From assembly GCA_000004695.1 (NCBI GenBank), contig CM000153.2, positions 2,848,001 to 2,912,000 of the forward strand: 64,000 nt of DNA. Reading direction: 5' to 3'. Positions 54,514 through 59,503 of the stretch are shown one piece after another. The notes below the pieces were generated by a model. The model did not search any database, was not told where the DNA came from, and saw nothing but the letters and a program-made list of their open reading frames with translations. Position numbers and translations under genes: made by a program. This DNA is from Dictyostelium discoideum (Eukaryota). Each line of letters opens with the position of its first letter. Within the stretch, counting starts at the first letter, position 1.

Positions 54514-54867
54514 TTAACCTCCGCTGACTGGTGGTATAATGGCAATTTCATCATTAGAATTAATTTTAATATCTTGGTCTCTTGAAATGTATTCTTGATT
54601 TACTGCCAATAAGCTAACTTCCAAAGTCTATTTAAAAATTAGAAATAGTGAGCACAGCACTTTTAACAAATTAACTTTTTTTTTTTTTTTTTTTTTTTTA
54701 GAAAATTAATAAAAACATACAGATGATATTTGTGGATATATATGTTTAAGCTTTCGAATTAAATTGAATGATGTACTTTCATCAAGTGGAAGATCAATAA
54801 ATATAGAATCTTTTCCTATAACTTCCTTTACCTTTGCAAATAATAATATTTTAAATTGATTTGACAT
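54514..54867 (-). CDS. molybdopterin synthase sulfur-carrier subunit MOCS2A/MoaD (ubiquitin-like, C-terminal Gly-Gly), 2 exons: complement(join(54514..54627,54721..54867)); 86 aa
   Basis: MSNQFKILLFAKVKEVIGKDSIFIDLPLDESTSFNLIRKLKHIYPQISS|TLEVSLLAVNQEYISRDQDIKINSNDEIAIIPPVSGG*. Compare the human MOCS2A tail, ...IIFAVRQEYVELGDQLLVLQPGDEIAVIPPISGG. It has a GTATGT donor and an aaatag acceptor, phase 0. Confidence 0.7.
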
Positions 54868-55242
54868 CTTGTAATTATACTATATTTTTTCAAAAAAAAA
54901 AAAAAAAAAAAAAAAAAAAAAAAAAAAATGCTAACTTTTGTAAAATAAATTAAAAAAAATTAAAAATTAAAAAAAACCAAATAAAGGAGGTAATAAAAAA
55001 AGGTTTAAAATTTATTTAAAATAACATTACTAATTCAGTAAAGTTTATTTTTTATTGTTTTTTTTTTTTTTTAAAGAATTTAAAAATATTAAAGATAGGT
55101 TTTAATTCAAATTAATTGATTAAATAATTGTAGATTTAAAAATTATCATTTGTTTAGTACAAATTAAAATATTAAAAAAATTAATTTTTAATAATTCCTG
55201 TAAAAAAAAAACTAAAAAAAAAACTAAAAAAAAAAAAAAAAA

Positions 55243-55902
55243 CTAAATCGGAATAGGAATTTCCAAATCACTGTTGTTATCATTATTATTATTACTATTA
55301 TTATTACTAAATATTGGTTCATTATTATTATTATTGTTATCAGTACTACCACTACCACCACTATTATTATTATTATTATTATTATTATTATTATTATTAT
55401 TATTATTATTATTATTATTATTATTATTATTATTATTATTATTATTATTATTATTATTATTATTATTTAAATTTGTTAAAGGTATAGGACTTCTATGATT
55501 TTTATCTTTAACTTTTTTAAAATACCTTTTAAAGGATTTGTACAAGTCAACTACTGTTTTATCACCAGTTATGATATCAATAGTACCACCTATATAACTT
55601 GATAAATTACCACCTGTACCTGCAGATAAAAATATACCCACGATTCGATATACTAGTGGGAGTCCCTTTCCAACTAAGGGGAAATTTTCATATTCTTTAC
55701 AAACTAATACAATTCCAAGAACTAAACCACCAATGACACCAAACACAGTTGCCAAAGACCGATTATTTGAATTACTTAATCTAATTAACATCCTTTTAAT
55801 TACATTTTCTTTTTTCTTTTTACTTTTATTGATATGTTGTCTTGATGATACTGATGATGGTGTATTAATTGATTGTGGTGAGTTTTGGTTATTTATTATC
55901 AT
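55243..55902 (-). CDS. hypothetical small membrane protein with a glycine-zipper segment (219 aa)
   Basis: Single ORF from an ATG. It has GVIGGLVLGIVLV...IVGIFLSAGTGGNLSSYIGGTIDIITGDK, followed by a poly-N tail. Confidence 0.5.
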   Translation of the reverse strand: MIINNQNSPQSINTPSSVSSRQHINKSKKKKENVIKRMLIRLSNSNNRSLATVFGVIGGLVLGIVLVCKEYENFPLVGKGLPLVYRIVGIFLSAGTGGNLSSYIGGTIDIITGDKTVVDLYKSFKRYFKKVKDKNHRSPIPLTNLNNNNNNNNNNNNNNNNNNNNNNNNNNNNNNNNNNNSGGSGSTDNNNNNNEPIFSNNNSNNNNDNNSDLEIPIPI

Positions 55903-56279
55903 ATTGTTTTATTTTTTATTTTTTTATTTCAAATGAAATAGTGATATTAATTTTTAAAAAACCATAAATAGAAATTAAATAAGAATAAATTTTTTAAAAA
56001 AAAAAAATAATAAAATAAAAAAACCACACAAAAGTGTTTAATTAATGAAATGAAAGTAAAATGTTAAAAAAAATGAATAAATAAAAAAAAAAAAAAATAA
56101 AAAAGGGGTTTGTCAAAGGTCGAAAACTATCATTCAATTAAAAACTTATTTTTATTTTCATCTTTTTTTTTTTTTTATTTTTTTTTTATTTTTTTTTTTT
56201 TTTTTTTTTCGTTCGTTTTTTCATTTTTAATCCCATAATTTATATATTATTAATGGTTAAAATAAAAGAAATGTTTTAT

Positions 56280-56520
56280 TGAAATTTAAAAGTTATGACC
56301 AAACTCTTAGGATCATTTCTAGAGTATCGTCTATTAAAATTATTCATCAATAATTTTTCCTCTTTCACAGCTAGGATGATGATATACACTCACTACACGA
56401 AAGCGTGAAACCGTTATTATCGAATGATTCATTTATTCTTTATTAACATTGATGACCGTCTAATTCAGGGATGAATTGGTTGTGTGGTGGGATTCGTACT
56501 GGCTCTTTTTTAATTTAATT
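56280..56520 (+). ncRNA. candidate non-coding RNA / structured element (speculative)
   Basis: It is a 240-bp island of unusually balanced base composition in intergenic DNA, with no credible ORF on either strand. It contains AUGAUGA (a C-box-like motif) and ends ...ggctcttttttaa (a T-run). I did not confirm a D box. This is weak. Confidence 0.2.
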
Positions 56521-57080
56521 AATGAAAAAAAACCAAAATAATTTAAGTTTTTTATTTAATATTGTACTAAATAAAAAATATTTTTTATTATTTGTTTAAA
56601 ATTAAAATTCTTTGTTTGATAATTAAGAATTAAAAAAAGAATAGTTTCTTAACATTTTAAAATTAAAATTCATAAATAAACTATTAACTATTAATTATTG
56701 TTTATTTCCTTTAATGGATAAACACTGATTTATCAATATTTAAAAAATAAATAAAATAAAATAAAACTATTAAAATTTTGACTAAATTATTTAAAAAAAA
56801 AAAAAAAAAAAAAAAAAAAAAAAAAAAAAAAAAAAAAAAAAAAAAAAAATTAAAATAATTATTCCTTTATTTTATTTATAATGATTTTGTTTTGTTTAGC
56901 ATTGTTTTTTTTTTTTTTTTTTTTTTTTTTATAAACAAGATATTTTTTTATTTTTTTTAATTTCCCAATTTAATTTTAATAAAAAAAATCTTTTATTAAT
57001 TTTTTTTTTTTTTTCATTTCATTTCAAAAAAAAAAAAAAACCAAACAAGAAAATAATAATAATAAAAAAACACATATGCA

Positions 57081-58497
57081 ATGACAAATATAATAAAATC
57101 TTTTATAACTAGAAATACATATTTAAATAAATTATCACCATCACCATACCAATTTAATAAATATTATTCAAATTCAATATCAACACCACCAACACATTCA
57201 TATGAAAAAAAACAACAACCAATTCAAAATGTTGATGATAAAAAATATATTTTAACAGATAGATTTAATAGACATCATACTTATTTAAGAATATCATTAA
57301 CAGAAAGATGCAATTTACGTTGTAAATATTGTATGCCTGAAGAAGGAGTAATGTTATCACAAGCTGATAAAATTTTAACCACTGATGAAATTATTAGATT
57401 ATCAAAATTATTCGTATCAGCAGGTGTAAATAAAATTAGATTCACTGGTGGTGAACCATTAGTATGTTTTATTATTATTATTATTATTATTATTATTATT
57501 ATTATTATTATTATTATTATTATTATTATTATTATTATTATTATTATTATTATTATTATTATTATTATTTACATTATTTATTTATACATATTTATTTTAT
57601 TAATTTTTTTTTTTTAAAAAATTAGGTTAGAAAAGATGTTGAACCATTAATTGAAGAAGTTGGTAAAATTAAAGGATTACAAAAGATTGGAATAACAACA
57701 AATGGAATATTATTAAGTAGAAAATTAGATAGATTACATAAAGCTGGTGTGAATTTATTAAATATTAGTTTAGATACATTAAATTCTGATAAATTCACAT
57801 TAATTACAAGAAGATTAGGTTGGGATAGAGTTTTTCAATCAATTGATAATGCATTAAAATTAGATAATATAAAAGTTAAAGTTAATTGTGTAATAATGAA
57901 AGGTTTAAATGATATGGAGGTAAAAAACATAAAATAAAATTATTAATATTAATATTATATTTTATTATATATATAAATATAAATATACTAATTTTTTATT
58001 TTTTTTATTTTTAGATTTGCGATTTTGTTGAAATGACAAGAGATAAATCAGTAGAAATTAGGTTTATTGAATATATGCCATTTGATGGTAACCTTTGGAG
58101 TGATAAAAAGTTTTTATCATATACTGATATGATTAAAATTATACATGAAAAGTATCCAACATTTAAAAAGTATACAATTGAAGAAGAGGAACCAAATAAT
58201 ACATCGAAAACATATCATGTACCAGGTTTTAAAGGTAAAGTTGGTTTCATTACATCAATGAGTGAACATTTTTGTTCATCTTGTAATAGATTAAGAATTA
58301 CTGCAGATGGAAACCTAAAGGTTTGTCTCTTTGGTAATACTGAGGTAAATCTTAGAGATAGAATTAGAGATGGTGCATCCGATCAACAATTATTAGAAAT
58401 AATAAATGCCGCTGTTTTAAAGAAAAAAGCTTCTCATGCAGGTATGTATGAGATTGCTCAAAATAAAAATAGACCAATGATTTTAATTGGAGGTTAA
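57081..58497 (+). CDS. mocs1: molybdenum cofactor biosynthesis protein MoaA/MOCS1A (radical SAM GTP 3',8-cyclase), 3 exons: join(57081..57461,57626..57919,58015..58497); 385 aa, C-terminal Gly-Gly
   Basis: The radical-SAM motif CNLRCKYC is present. GGEPL|[23 protein letters not shown]...[15 protein letters not shown]|[26 protein letters not shown]...[22 protein letters not shown]...RPMILIGG* aligns with human MOCS1A end to end, and the lengths are identical. It has GTATGT and GTAAAA donors. Intron 1 is a pure (ATT)n repeat. Confidence 0.85.
57471..57569. repeat. (ATT)n microsatellite, about 32 units, filling most of mocs1 intron 1
   Basis: Seen directly. The poly-Ile 'ORF' tail 57462-57617 is read-through of the intron. 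Confidence 0.9.
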
Positions 58498-58668
58498 TAA
58501 AAATAAAATAAAATAAAATAAAATAAAATAAAATAAAATAATATTAATCAAATAATATAATTTAAAAAAAAAAAAAAAAAAAAAAAAAAAAAAAAAAAAA
58601 AAAAAAATATAGAAAAATCTAAAATTCAAATAAATTTTAAAAATAAATCAATTAAACAAAAGAAAGAA

Positions 58669-59503
58669 GTGAAAAATTATTTATTAAAATTAATAAATTC
58701 TAGTTTTATTAATAGTAATAATAATAATAATAATAATAATAATAATAATAATAATTCAAAATTACAATATATTCAACAAAGAAATTATTCAACCAATAAA
58801 AATAATCAAAACCTGGAAAATAATGAATTTTCACATATTACTAAAGATGGTAAATTGCCAACAATGGTTGATATTTCCGATAAAATCATTACAAAGAGAA
58901 CTGCACATGCACAGTCAATATTGGAATTCCCATCAAATGTTTTATCTCAATTATTAAATTTAGAAAAAAATAATGATATTGATAATGATAATAACATTTC
59001 AAAAAATAAAGAAATAGTTTCTAAAAAAGGACCAGTATTTGCTACATCAATTGTTGCAGGTACAATGGCTGTAAAGAATACTTCAAATTTAATACCATTT
59101 TGTCATCCAATACCAATTGAGTCATGTAAAATAGAAATAACAATAATAGATTCAACAAGTGTAAAAGTAGATTGTATAGTTTCAATGAGTGGTAAAACTG
59201 GTGTTGAAATGGAGGCATTAACAGGTAAGAATAATTTTATTTTTTAGTTTTAATTTTGTTTTTTATTCTTTTTTTTTTTTTTTTTTTTTTTTTTTTTTTT
59301 TTTTTTTTTTTCATTTGTATTAACATTTAACTATTTTTGGAAAAAAATAAAAAATAAAAAATATAAAAAAAAAAGGTGCTACTATTACTAGTTTAACAAT
59401 TTATGACATGTGCAAAGCACTTTCAAAAGATATAGTAATTAAAGAAACAAAGTTAATTTCAAAATTTGGTGGTAAATCCTCGTCTCCACAAATTACAAAA
59501 TAG
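58669..59503 (+). CDS. molybdenum cofactor biosynthesis protein MoaC/MOCS1B (cyclic pyranopterin monophosphate synthase), 2 exons: join(58669..59224,59376..59503); the true translation start is unresolved
   Basis: [33 protein letters not shown]...[39 protein letters not shown]...[13 protein letters not shown]|[33 protein letters not shown] matches MoaC (LTHI...[19 protein letters not shown]). Position 58669 is a GTG, not an ATG. The first in-frame ATG (58864) lies inside the conserved N-terminal block. The ORF is in the same frame as MoaA 171 bp upstream. Confidence 0.7.

Follow-up and report, generated by a model that had tools for sequence, protein, structure and literature searches.

A divergent pair of molybdenum cofactor genes, mocs2s and the probable two-product gene mocs1, in Dictyostelium discoideum and related Dictyosteliaceae

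Genes and spacer of the locus

We analysed a 64-kb stretch of D. discoideum DNA (the window, at its full length), in which mocs2s and mocs1, two genes that serve consecutive steps of molybdenum cofactor (Moco) synthesis, are transcribed divergently from start codons 2,213 bp apart (Table 1). This distance agrees with the 2.2 kb between MOCS2A and MoaA given in a first-pass annotation of the same DNA. The coordinates it gave for the coding regions were confirmed, and its assignment of the genes to Moco biosynthesis, with MOCS2A on the minus strand and the MoaA and MoaC frames on the plus strand, was upheld by exact protein matches and Pfam domains.

Table 1. Features of the mocs2s-mocs1 locus, in positions of the window
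Feature	Position	Strand	Remarks
mocs2s (MOCS2A/MoaD)	54514..54867	-	sulfur-carrier small subunit of molybdopterin synthase
mocs2s structure	exon 1 54867..54721; intron 54720..54628 (GTATGT...TAG); exon 2 54627..54514	-	
'Glycine zipper' ORF	55243..55902	-	219 aa, long Asn tract; ORF call
TCCCATAA, candidate upstream sequence element of small-RNA genes	56231..56238	+	pattern match, ~57 nt upstream of U3
U3 small nucleolar RNA gene	56295..56503	+	Rfam RF00012
mocs1, MOCS1A (MoaA) frame	57081..57461, 57626..57919, 58015..58497	+	span 57081..58497; stop codon 58495..58497
Predicted alternative (retained or spliced) mocs1 intron	58442..58612	+	171 nt, 90% A+T, GTATGT...ATAG
mocs1, linker and MOCS1B (MoaC)	exon 58613..59224, intron 59225..59375, exon 59376..59503 (with stop)	+	span 58613..59503

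The spliced mocs2s model encodes 86 aa with the C-terminus IIPPVSGG and showed no differences from XP_639888/Q54NM8 (D. discoideum AX4 'molybdenum cofactor synthesis protein 2 small subunit'), while its Pfam ThiS match reached 51.2 bits against a cut-off of 22.5. Both the intron position and the C-terminus were the same in orthologues from three relatives. The product is the sulfur carrier of molybdopterin synthase, the enzyme that acts on the mocs1 product.

The MOCS1A frame of mocs1 encodes 385 aa with the radical-SAM motif CNLRCKYC and a C-terminal MILIGG followed by the stop. The model agreed residue for residue with UniRef 'Isoform mocs1a of Molybdenum cofactor biosynthesis protein 1' and contained the Pfam domains Radical_SAM (113 bits) and Mob_synth_C (133 bits). 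Pfam MoaC (146 bits) covered residues 452-604 of a 613-aa mocs1 fusion model and was preceded by a basic linker, in which RNYS lies ~17 residues ahead of the conserved FSHI...PTMVDISDK segment; an R-x-[YF]-[SC] motif was present in 8 of 10 amoebozoan linkers. The best mocs1 matches were fused MOCS1 proteins from Amoebozoa, animals and fungi, and by its sequence mocs1 is of eukaryotic descent. Spliceosomal introns interrupt both mocs2s and mocs1, at positions conserved among dictyostelids.

Between the two genes, the 219-aa ORF is a predicted membrane protein with no evident Moco link and no Pfam family, its best weak match (OM14_C, E=0.12) being not significant. Its orthologues lie directly upstream of mocs1, in divergent orientation, in D. 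purpureum (L001 8749..9405) and D. firmibasis (L007 8990..9619), and none was found in the P. violaceum locus. This ORF had been taken for the single unrelated gene of the spacer; there are actually two, as a U3 small nucleolar RNA gene had been overlooked. It matched the full-length Rfam model with 89.1 bits (gathering score 34, E=3.7e-18), and D. firmibasis carries a U3 gene at the same place (L007 8362..8569). A candidate element precedes the U3 gene (Table 1); we take the consensus of the upstream sequence element of Dictyostelium small-RNA genes to be [AT]CCCA[CT]AA, usually near -60. Since two unrelated genes split the pair in D. discoideum, mocs2s and mocs1 cannot share one promoter there.

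Two predicted products of mocs1

Animal MOCS1 is reportedly bicistronic and alternatively spliced to give MOCS1A and MOCS1AB (Reiss et al. 1998; Gray & Nicholls 2000). The first-pass annotation had remarked on the resemblance of its MoaA-then-MoaC order to this gene, and mocs1 indeed corresponds to it as the orthologous fused gene, with predicted alternative splicing. What had been counted as three Moco genes are two, MoaA and MoaC belonging to a single locus with an in-frame intron and a MoaC frame that lacks an ATG before its conserved N-terminus. As in human and other animal MOCS1, the MoaA frame closes with the essential Gly-Gly and a stop, the MoaC frame behind it on the same strand is probably not translated alone, an in-frame splice (read from the genome sequence in D. 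discoideum) drops the GG-stop to create a fusion protein, and a non-conserved basic linker connects both domains.

Splicing of 58442..58612 is predicted to join ...KKKASHA to EKSKIQ... with the frame kept, giving the MoaA-MoaC fusion of 613 aa, and a second donor at 58493 (G/GTTAAT, inside GGT-TAA) would give a fusion of 630 aa. Each donor keeps the frame when joined to the acceptor AG at 58611-58612, and both bypass the GG-stop. The 58442-type junction occurred in RNA-derived contigs without introns from a P. violaceum-like organism (protein P0010, on L012-L015) and was also found in models for P. violaceum, D. citrinum and Balamuthia, while the 58493-type junction was confined to the gene models of two further D. 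discoideum strains. Both forms were represented in the P. violaceum-like organism, the fused one by the intron-less P0010 (602 aa, junction ..KKKASHA/VE..) and the retained one by P0019 (396 aa) on a transcript-sized contig. In addition, the terminus of another of its contigs, L011, coincided exactly with a KKKASHA/VE-type junction.

We propose that mocs1, which converts GTP to cyclic pyranopterin monophosphate, is one gene with two products. Retention of the alternative intron would lead to a stop after ...MILIGG and thereby to active MOCS1A (MoaA), the C-terminal Gly-Gly of which is needed for activity, while its removal would eliminate the last 17 codons and the stop, making the MOCS1AB fusion the source of MOCS1B. 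The basic linker is probably an internal mitochondrial import signal cut near RNY/S, as the motif and the analogy with human MOCS1AB suggest. The 17-codon removal by the 58442 donor resembles human MOCS1 type III. In contrast to human MOCS1, where an exon 9 is skipped, D. discoideum would rely on one short intron rich in A+T (171 or 120 nt), mocs1 shows no sign of alternative first exons, and the donor GTATGT lies within conserved Gly-Met-Tyr codons, as is common to amoebozoans. The human mechanism has been described by Mayr et al. (bioRxiv 10.1101/429183), who listed D. discoideum with a fused MOCS1.

It is very improbable that MoaC is instead a separate gene downstream of MoaA, with its own promoter and start codon, which would leave three independent genes. 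Older annotations split MoaA and MoaC in D. purpureum, T. lacteum and C. fasciculata, the last with an opposite-strand gene between them, and in these three species, as in P. violaceum, an in-frame ATG precedes the MoaC domain; to judge from the reading frames, MoaC may be expressed independently in such relatives. However, the D. discoideum MoaC frame, open from 58561, lacks an ATG ahead of the conserved FSHI..PTMVD segment, its first one (58864) lying inside PTMVDISDK. The Pfam MoaC match begins at this ATG, from which MoaC may still be translated on its own with the whole Pfam domain. The MoaA stop is only 171 bp from the GTG at 58669, where the MoaC frame starts in the ORF listing, and 115 bp from the splice acceptor. 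Furthermore, in-frame splicing is available, a close relative has fused transcripts, UniRef lists the 385-aa product as one isoform of a single gene, and several D. discoideum strains have fused mocs1 models, all of which argues for a single mocs1 gene.

Linkage in relatives and the rest of the pathway

Across relatives, assigned to families by NCBI taxonomy, the mocs2s-mocs1 linkage was kept within the Dictyosteliaceae and absent beyond them, so that the synteny comparison suggested at first pass came out positive inside this family. The D. firmibasis locus was colinear with the D. discoideum window, U3 included, and in D. purpureum the ThiS gene and mocs1 lie 6.2 kb apart with three genes between. 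The corresponding P. violaceum genes (ThiS 7648..8001, minus strand; mocs1 8268..10373, plus strand) are head-to-head neighbours separated by 266 bp. Similarly, L011, a 1.8-kb RNA-derived contig of the P. violaceum-like organism, carries MOCS2A and mocs1, both spliced, on opposite strands with 259 bp between them, and four contigs place P. violaceum-like mocs1 5' ends ~91-114 nt upstream of the ATG. The two P. violaceum genes are immediate neighbours with abutting transcripts, and the distance and the assembled contig would fit a shared bidirectional promoter.

Outside the family, mocs2s and mocs1 were unlinked in T. lacteum (Tieghemostelium) and C. fasciculata (Cavenderia), where they lie on different scaffolds, as well as in H. 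album (Heterostelium) and A. subglobosum (Acytostelium), and no MOCS2A was found within 10 kb of mocs1 in Balamuthia. The linkage is therefore missing from three other dictyostelid families and Balamuthia, and mocs1 is present in all five species. The unrelated spacer genes were either inserted in Dictyostelium or lost in P. violaceum, the outgroups all being unlinked. The surrounding block (DER1 ... mocs2s ... mocs1 - GATA - OSBP) was broadly colinear among D. discoideum, D. purpureum, D. firmibasis and P. violaceum; GATA was kept beside mocs1 in all four dictyostelids in which it was compared with the window, and DER1 and OSBP were kept in part. Conservation of the unrelated GATA neighbour reaches beyond that of mocs2s, as far as T. 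lacteum; conserved synteny here is no evidence of selection for clustering.

The MoaE partner, said at first pass not to adjoin MOCS2A, was indeed absent, as tblastn with E. coli MoaE (verified to be identical to PDB 1FM0_E) gave no match at E<=10 in the 64-kb window. This search and a Pfam scan of all ORFs of at least 110 aa revealed no MoaE, gephyrin or MOCS3 in the window, and eight relatives had no further Moco gene in the ±10 kb flanks that were examined. With only two genes linked, the pathway-level clustering of three genes that had been proposed did not hold. Animal MOCS2 reportedly produces an overlapping bicistronic MOCS2A/MOCS2B mRNA (Stallmeyer et al. 1999). The small subunits are alike, ThiS-fold proteins of ~86-88 aa with a GG end, whereas D. 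discoideum mocs2s has no overlapping or adjoining MoaE frame, and neither has MOCS2A in the seven other dictyostelid loci examined (six named species and L011), mocs2l being a separately named D. discoideum gene. Also unlike in animals, the small subunit of Dictyosteliaceae is linked to the preceding step (mocs1) and not to its partner subunit. The rest of the pathway (mocs2l/MoaE, mocs3 and gephyrin) would thus lie elsewhere in the genome. In published data, mocs2l and mocs3 are down-regulated on starvation together with mocs1 and mocs2s, and this shared response of unlinked genes indicates that the co-regulation is independent of linkage.

Origin and meaning of the gene pair

Altogether, mocs1 and mocs2s are likely to be two divergent genes forming a derived, loosened pair of the Dictyosteliaceae, with mocs1 one gene with two products and the rest of the pathway elsewhere. 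In Dictyostelium species they are now separated by one to three unrelated genes, and the D. discoideum linkage is best read as a loosened remnant that does not function as a co-regulated cluster. Head-to-head co-functional pairs with bidirectional promoters, such as HSPD1/HSPE1, have been described (Davila Lopez et al. 2010, PMC2871058). The P. violaceum genes resemble them in that functionally related genes diverge from a 266-bp spacer. In D. discoideum, in contrast, the starts are 2.2 kb apart, a protein gene and U3 lie between and the short shared spacer is gone, and conservation of the mocs2s-mocs1 pair is confined to one family.

Pure coincidence followed by inertia, that is, a random rearrangement in the Dictyosteliaceae ancestor preserved by microsynteny with no functional effect even in P. 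violaceum, has a little under an even chance of being the whole explanation. In these species the surrounding block keeps a broadly colinear order whatever its genes do, the linkage tolerates insertions and the pathway works without it in other dictyostelids. Against this stand the head-to-head arrangement and abutting transcripts of the P. violaceum lineage, which make sharing of promoter elements physically likely, and the low prior chance of such proximity: assuming ~12,500 D. discoideum genes, any two of five Moco genes would be immediate neighbours with a roughly estimated chance of ~0.002, or ~0.005 with up to two genes between. As the pair was picked after the fact, this low estimate alone does not exclude coincidence.

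Selection for a co-regulated mini-cluster, in which a shared promoter or chromatin domain coordinates consecutive steps and explains the persistence across Dictyosteliaceae, is unlikely. The consecutive steps, the divergent orientation in all four linked species, the short P. violaceum spacer with one RNA-derived contig covering both genes, the joint drop of mocs1 and mocs2s on starvation and the naive adjacency chance all speak for it, as does the tendency of conserved divergent pairs with short spacers in metazoa and fungi to be functionally related (PMC2871058). However, one to three unrelated genes occupy the spacer of every Dictyostelium species examined, unlinked mocs2l and mocs3 show the same starvation regulation, and four other dictyostelids lack the linkage, as does the vicinity of mocs1 in Balamuthia. 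Moreover, unrelated neighbours are kept as well as mocs2s or better, and the case was chosen after the fact from a genome scan.

The locus recalls the bacterial moaABCDE operon in that MoaA, MoaC and MoaD functions lie close together in D. discoideum, but its genes are eukaryotic and intron-bearing, with MoaA and MoaC predicted to be fused by splicing and MoaD encoded on the opposite strand, and the locus lacks MoaB and MoaE and has unrelated genes interspersed. A remnant of a horizontally acquired moaA-moaC-moaD operon is scarcely credible: the same three functions occur in the bacterial operon and the MOCS2A matches listed outside dictyostelids were bacterial MoaD/ThiS or unnamed metagenome sequences, with no named non-dictyostelid eukaryote, but such an excess is expected for an 86-aa protein in a bacteria-dominated database indexed by exact words, and the conserved intron positions, the fused eukaryotic top matches of mocs1, the divergent orientation and the IIPPVSGG-ending orthologues, unlinked to mocs1 in all other dictyostelids, argue against it.

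Under the favoured reading, a loosened derived pair, the two already-annotated genes form a modest pair specific to the Dictyosteliaceae lineage rather than a pathway cluster.

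Two molybdenum cofactor genes in the window

The first-pass annotation had described three molybdenum cofactor (Moco) genes, MOCS2A, MoaA and MoaC, clustered at 54514-59503 around one unrelated small gene. Its coordinates and functional assignments stood, as exact protein matches for mocs2s and mocs1a and the Pfam domains confirmed, but its gene count and its account of the intervening content did not. MoaA and MoaC turned out to be parts of a single locus, mocs1, in which the MoaC frame has no ATG before 58864 and an in-frame splice would bypass the stop codon that follows the double glycine (GG-stop) of MoaA. 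Between mocs2s and mocs1, a U3 snoRNA gene was present besides the glycine-zipper ORF. The distance of about 2.2 kb between MOCS2A and MoaA was right (the start codons are 2,213 bp apart), and so was the remark that MoaE is not next to MOCS2A: tblastn with E. coli MoaE, a query checked to be identical to PDB 1FM0_E, found no match, whether in the window or among the fetched loci. Altogether, that description was partly supported.

Features of the mocs2s-mocs1 region (window coordinates)
Feature	Position	Strand	Description
mocs2s (MOCS2A/MoaD small subunit of molybdopterin synthase)	exons 54867..54721 + 54627..54514	minus	intron GTATGT...TAG; 86-aa product (spliced model)
Glycine-zipper ORF	55243..55902	minus	219 aa; glycine-rich membrane core; tract of ~40 Asn
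Upstream element TCCCATAA	56231..56238	plus	~57 nt before the U3 snoRNA gene
U3 snoRNA gene	56295..56503	plus	Rfam RF00012, 89 bits, full-length
mocs1, MoaA part	57081..57461, 57626..57919, 58015..58497	plus	385 aa, three exons
mocs1, MoaC part	58613..59224 + 59376..59503	plus	complete MoaC domain

The spliced mocs2s product matched exactly XP_639888/Q54NM8, the 'molybdenum cofactor synthesis protein 2 small subunit' of D. discoideum AX4. It belongs to the ThiS/MoaD family (PF02597, 51.2 bits against a cut-off of 22.5, residues 7-86) and carries the Gly-Gly thiocarboxylation site right before the stop codon (PPVSGG-stop), a C-terminal end that was invariant across eight dictyostelid orthologues. 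mocs2s is thus a standard MOCS2A. In the animal MOCS2 bicistron the MoaE frame overlaps or adjoins MOCS2A, whereas mocs2s has no such neighbour; on its 3' side lies STT3, 221 bp away on the opposite strand, and mocs2l (MoaE) has been named as a separate gene (Kelly et al. 2021). The window is very AT-rich, and the STT3 coding region (53001..54000) rises to 40% G+C where the background is about 20%.

Pfam scans of all ORFs of at least 110 aa in the 64-kb window identified kinesin, FNIP, SNAP, AP mu subunit, SNF2 helicase, CDC24-OB, Metallophos, TRAF/MATH, DER1, STT3, GATA and OSBP families, and neither MoeA/MogA nor ThiF-type proteins. A pathway-level cluster, taken as at least three non-homologous adjacent genes of one pathway, is therefore not what the region contains, since only mocs2s and mocs1 qualify; the three-gene clustering initially proposed comes down to two genes, with no MoaE, MoeA/MogA or ThiF-type gene in 64 kb.

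As for the intervening features, the glycine-zipper ORF matched no Pfam family, its membrane core having been searched up to E<=10, and a Moco-related or mitochondrial role, for which there was no supporting evidence, was dropped. The exact 219-aa sequence had no entry in the protein collection searched, so the annotated model may differ. Orthologues were located just upstream of mocs1, in divergent orientation, in D. purpureum and D. firmibasis, and none was found at the P. violaceum locus. The U3 snoRNA gene occupied the same place in D. firmibasis (L007, the locus of that species, 8362..8569).

Predicted alternative splicing and fusion of mocs1

The MoaA-type product of mocs1 matched exactly the UniRef entry 'Isoform mocs1a of Molybdenum cofactor biosynthesis protein 1'. 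Both MoaA/MOCS1A domains were detected (Radical_SAM PF04055, 113 bits; Mob_synth_C PF06463, 133 bits), and the N-terminal CxxxCxxC motif (CNLRCKYC) and the C-terminal cysteine triad could be read directly in the translation. The protein ends in a double glycine (RPMILIGG-stop), as did all five relatives examined. The MoaC/MOCS1B domain was full-length (PF01967, 146 bits, profile positions 1-136 of 136). Its frame is open from 58561 and the first in-frame ATG lies only at 58864, so that the linker and the conserved segment ahead of MoaC have no start codon of their own; this ATG encodes the Met of the conserved PTMVDISDK and corresponds to position 1 of the Pfam match. Intron 1 of mocs1 consists almost wholly of (ATT)n repeats over some 100 nt (57470..57570).

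The last MoaA exon contains two donors that share a frame with the acceptor AG at 58611-58612: GTATGT at 58442, set in the Gly-Met-Tyr codons, and GTTAAT at 58493, set in GGT-TAA. In silico, splicing from either one drops the GG-stop and fuses MoaA to MoaC in a protein of 613 or 630 aa, respectively, the 58442 donor being placed 17 codons upstream of the 58493-type junction. The four other introns of mocs2s and mocs1 begin with GTATGT, GTATGT, GTAAAA and GTAAGA, beside which GTTAAT would be an unusual and weak donor. In a P. violaceum-like organism, four samples yielded contigs of about 2 kb that lack introns and encode an uninterrupted 602-aa fusion (P0010) with the junction ..KKKASHA/VE.., and the retained form (P0019) was found on a 1,278-bp contig of the same organism. 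Another RNA-derived contig of this organism, L011, ended exactly at the KKKASHA-type junction (the alternative splice donor), as expected for a branch point between two isoforms. Gene models from P. violaceum, D. citrinum and Balamuthia share this 58442-type junction, as do two further transcript-sized or EukProt sequences. The 58493-type junction (ILIG/E) appeared only in models of two other D. discoideum strains, and neither the exact 613-aa nor the exact 630-aa fusion was found in the protein collection searched. Together, the transcript-derived and model junctions of the relatives favour 58442..58612 as the alternative intron of D. discoideum mocs1. The strain models with the GTTAAT donor may be mis-spliced, because GTATGT is the donor seen in the transcript-derived sequences of relatives. 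This evidence from relatives suggests a likely correction of the MOCS1AB junction, from GGT-TAA to the GTATGT donor at 58442, which changes the predicted protein.

Judged by its sequence, mocs1 belongs to the fused MOCS1 type, with every defining feature at that level present, and the likeness of its MoaA-MoaC adjacency to animal MOCS1 was thus upheld. This arrangement is the one known for the human gene, whose type I transcripts produce MOCS1A with its GG, while MOCS1AB comes from types II and III, in which the GG-stop is missing; MOCS1B has no independent expression, and the MOCS1AB linker directs mitochondrial import and is then cleaved (Mayr et al., bioRxiv 10.1101/429183). The same authors stated a fused MOCS1 orthologue for D. 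discoideum. In eight of ten amoebozoan mocs1 linkers we found R-x-[YF]-[SC], 9-24 residues ahead of a conserved [FL][ST]H; the D. discoideum form is RNYS, in a linker at 58613..58860. The motif is similar to the R-3 motif at which the mitochondrial processing peptidase cuts, and it may represent a putative mitochondrial cleavage site.

Two relatives differed in detail. In T. lacteum, Gly-Met-Tyr is coded GGA ATG TAT (L003, its mocs1 locus, 11030..11150), so the conserved GTATGT donor is missing; the MoaC frame has its own ATG just 57 nt past the MoaA stop. T. lacteum MoaA and MoaC may form a true bicistron, or MoaC may be expressed in another way. In C. fasciculata (locus L005), MoaA and MoaC are 1.3 kb apart, a 259-aa gene is called between them on the opposite strand (11676..12486, minus), and a U5 snRNA gene (9617..9726, minus) lies directly upstream of mocs1.

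Linkage of mocs2s and mocs1 across dictyostelids

Detection of MOCS2A orthologues depended on the query: a four-sequence profile found those of P. violaceum, T. lacteum, C. fasciculata, H. album and A. subglobosum, all five of which a single-sequence search missed. D. firmibasis was colinear with the window, the membrane ORF and U3 included. In D. purpureum, 6.2 kb containing CBM49, an MFS transporter and the membrane-ORF orthologue separated the ThiS gene from mocs1. In P. violaceum, mocs2s and mocs1 were immediate head-to-head neighbours only 266 bp apart. Similarly, L011 (JGI 3300028107, 1,769 bp) carried an intron-less mocs1 (2..1135, minus) and an equally intron-less MOCS2A (1395..1655, plus) on opposite strands, 259 bp apart. 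Given this spacing and the mocs1 5' ends about 91-114 nt upstream of the ATG in RNA-derived contigs of the same organism, the two divergent transcription units appear to abut or overlap. The layout expected of a bidirectional-promoter pair (head-to-head, starts less than 1 kb apart and nothing between them) is therefore found in P. violaceum and not in the window, where two genes lie in the 2.2 kb that separate the starts.

In T. lacteum and C. fasciculata, MOCS2A and mocs1 were on different scaffolds; no mocs1 was present within 10 kb of MOCS2A in H. album or A. subglobosum, and Balamuthia had a fused mocs1 with no MOCS2A nearby. The synteny comparison proposed in the first-pass annotation thus gave a divided answer: four Dictyosteliaceae retain the linkage, and four other dictyostelids, assigned by NCBI taxonomy to Raperosteliaceae, Acytosteliaceae and Cavenderiaceae, lack it. 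The simplest reading is that it arose once, in the ancestor of Dictyosteliaceae.

Other features were recorded at these loci. In both Acytosteliaceae genomes EMC4 convergently adjoins MOCS2A (H. album L008 10001..11375; A. subglobosum L009 10001..11001), a different conserved neighbourhood of the same gene. The P. violaceum locus (L002) contains two inverted Dictyostelium-type Class I RNA genes about 200 bp apart (16929..16984, minus; 17193..17248, plus), each scoring 44 bits, barely over the gathering score. Weak Metallophos and SNF2 similarities (26% identity) that linked remote stretches of the window to the flanks in Balamuthia or T. lacteum were judged to reflect paralogues and not synteny.

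Inertia, selection and the value of the pair

The GATA gene downstream of mocs1, which is unrelated to Moco, was kept not only in D. firmibasis, D. purpureum and P. violaceum but also in T. lacteum, and was thus conserved more widely than the mocs2s-mocs1 linkage; DER1 and OSBP showed partial retention in the compared loci. Microsynteny of the block is therefore generally high, and the persistence of mocs2s a few kb from mocs1 is not in itself evidence of selection. Retention by pure inertia is the account to which we would give most weight, somewhat short of half. The intermediate case, in which functional sharing occurs in P. violaceum only, takes whatever the other two readings leave; promoter sharing by mocs2s and mocs1 in that species is plausible. 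Conserved divergent pairs of co-functional genes are a well-known kind (PMC2871058). A linkage selected as such seems unlikely. The chance that two of five pathway genes are immediate neighbours is about 0.002, a rough estimate for a case picked after the fact. Against selection stands the wider conservation of GATA. The mocs2s-mocs1 spacer has also taken up unrelated genes in every Dictyostelium species examined, and this argues against a strong need for tight adjacency. In addition, mocs1, mocs2l, mocs2s and mocs3 all drop on starvation (Kelly et al. 2021), so that co-regulation reaches unlinked Moco genes too. Horizontal transfer of a bacterial moa operon was rejected, since the genes carry introns, mocs1 has eukaryotic affinity and orthologues occur unlinked.

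The mocs2s-mocs1 pair is thus real and lineage-specific, and that of D. discoideum is a loosened remnant. The neighbourhood is visible in any genome browser and apparently unremarked in the literature searched, where the single paper naming mocs2s or mocs2l says nothing about linkage. The main value of the analysis is a correction: an apparent three-gene eukaryotic pathway cluster becomes two already annotated genes of a model organism, one of them of the known fused MOCS1 type. What is new is another example of a known arrangement, together with a likely splice-junction correction.

On a reading that we consider doubtful, the move of mocs2s beside mocs1, the gene of the preceding pathway step, in the ancestor of Dictyosteliaceae formed a head-to-head unit with one short bidirectional promoter, intact in P. 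violaceum and selected for the coordinated supply of cPMP and sulfur donor. If true, it would represent a eukaryotic reinvention of the moaA/C-moaD linkage by a route unlike the animal MOCS2 bicistron, and in D. discoideum the real fusion isoform would have 613 aa and the conserved GTATGT donor, not the ...ILIG junction of the other-strain models. Amoebozoa share both the bypass of the GG-stop and a linker that bears a putative motif for mitochondrial cleavage, which supports an ancient origin of the MOCS1 maturation described in human cells. Since the tight divergent pair of mocs2s and mocs1 is intact in P. violaceum but has been broken up in Dictyostelium, it offers a natural experiment, on a small scale, on whether consecutive pathway steps keep or lose a shared promoter.
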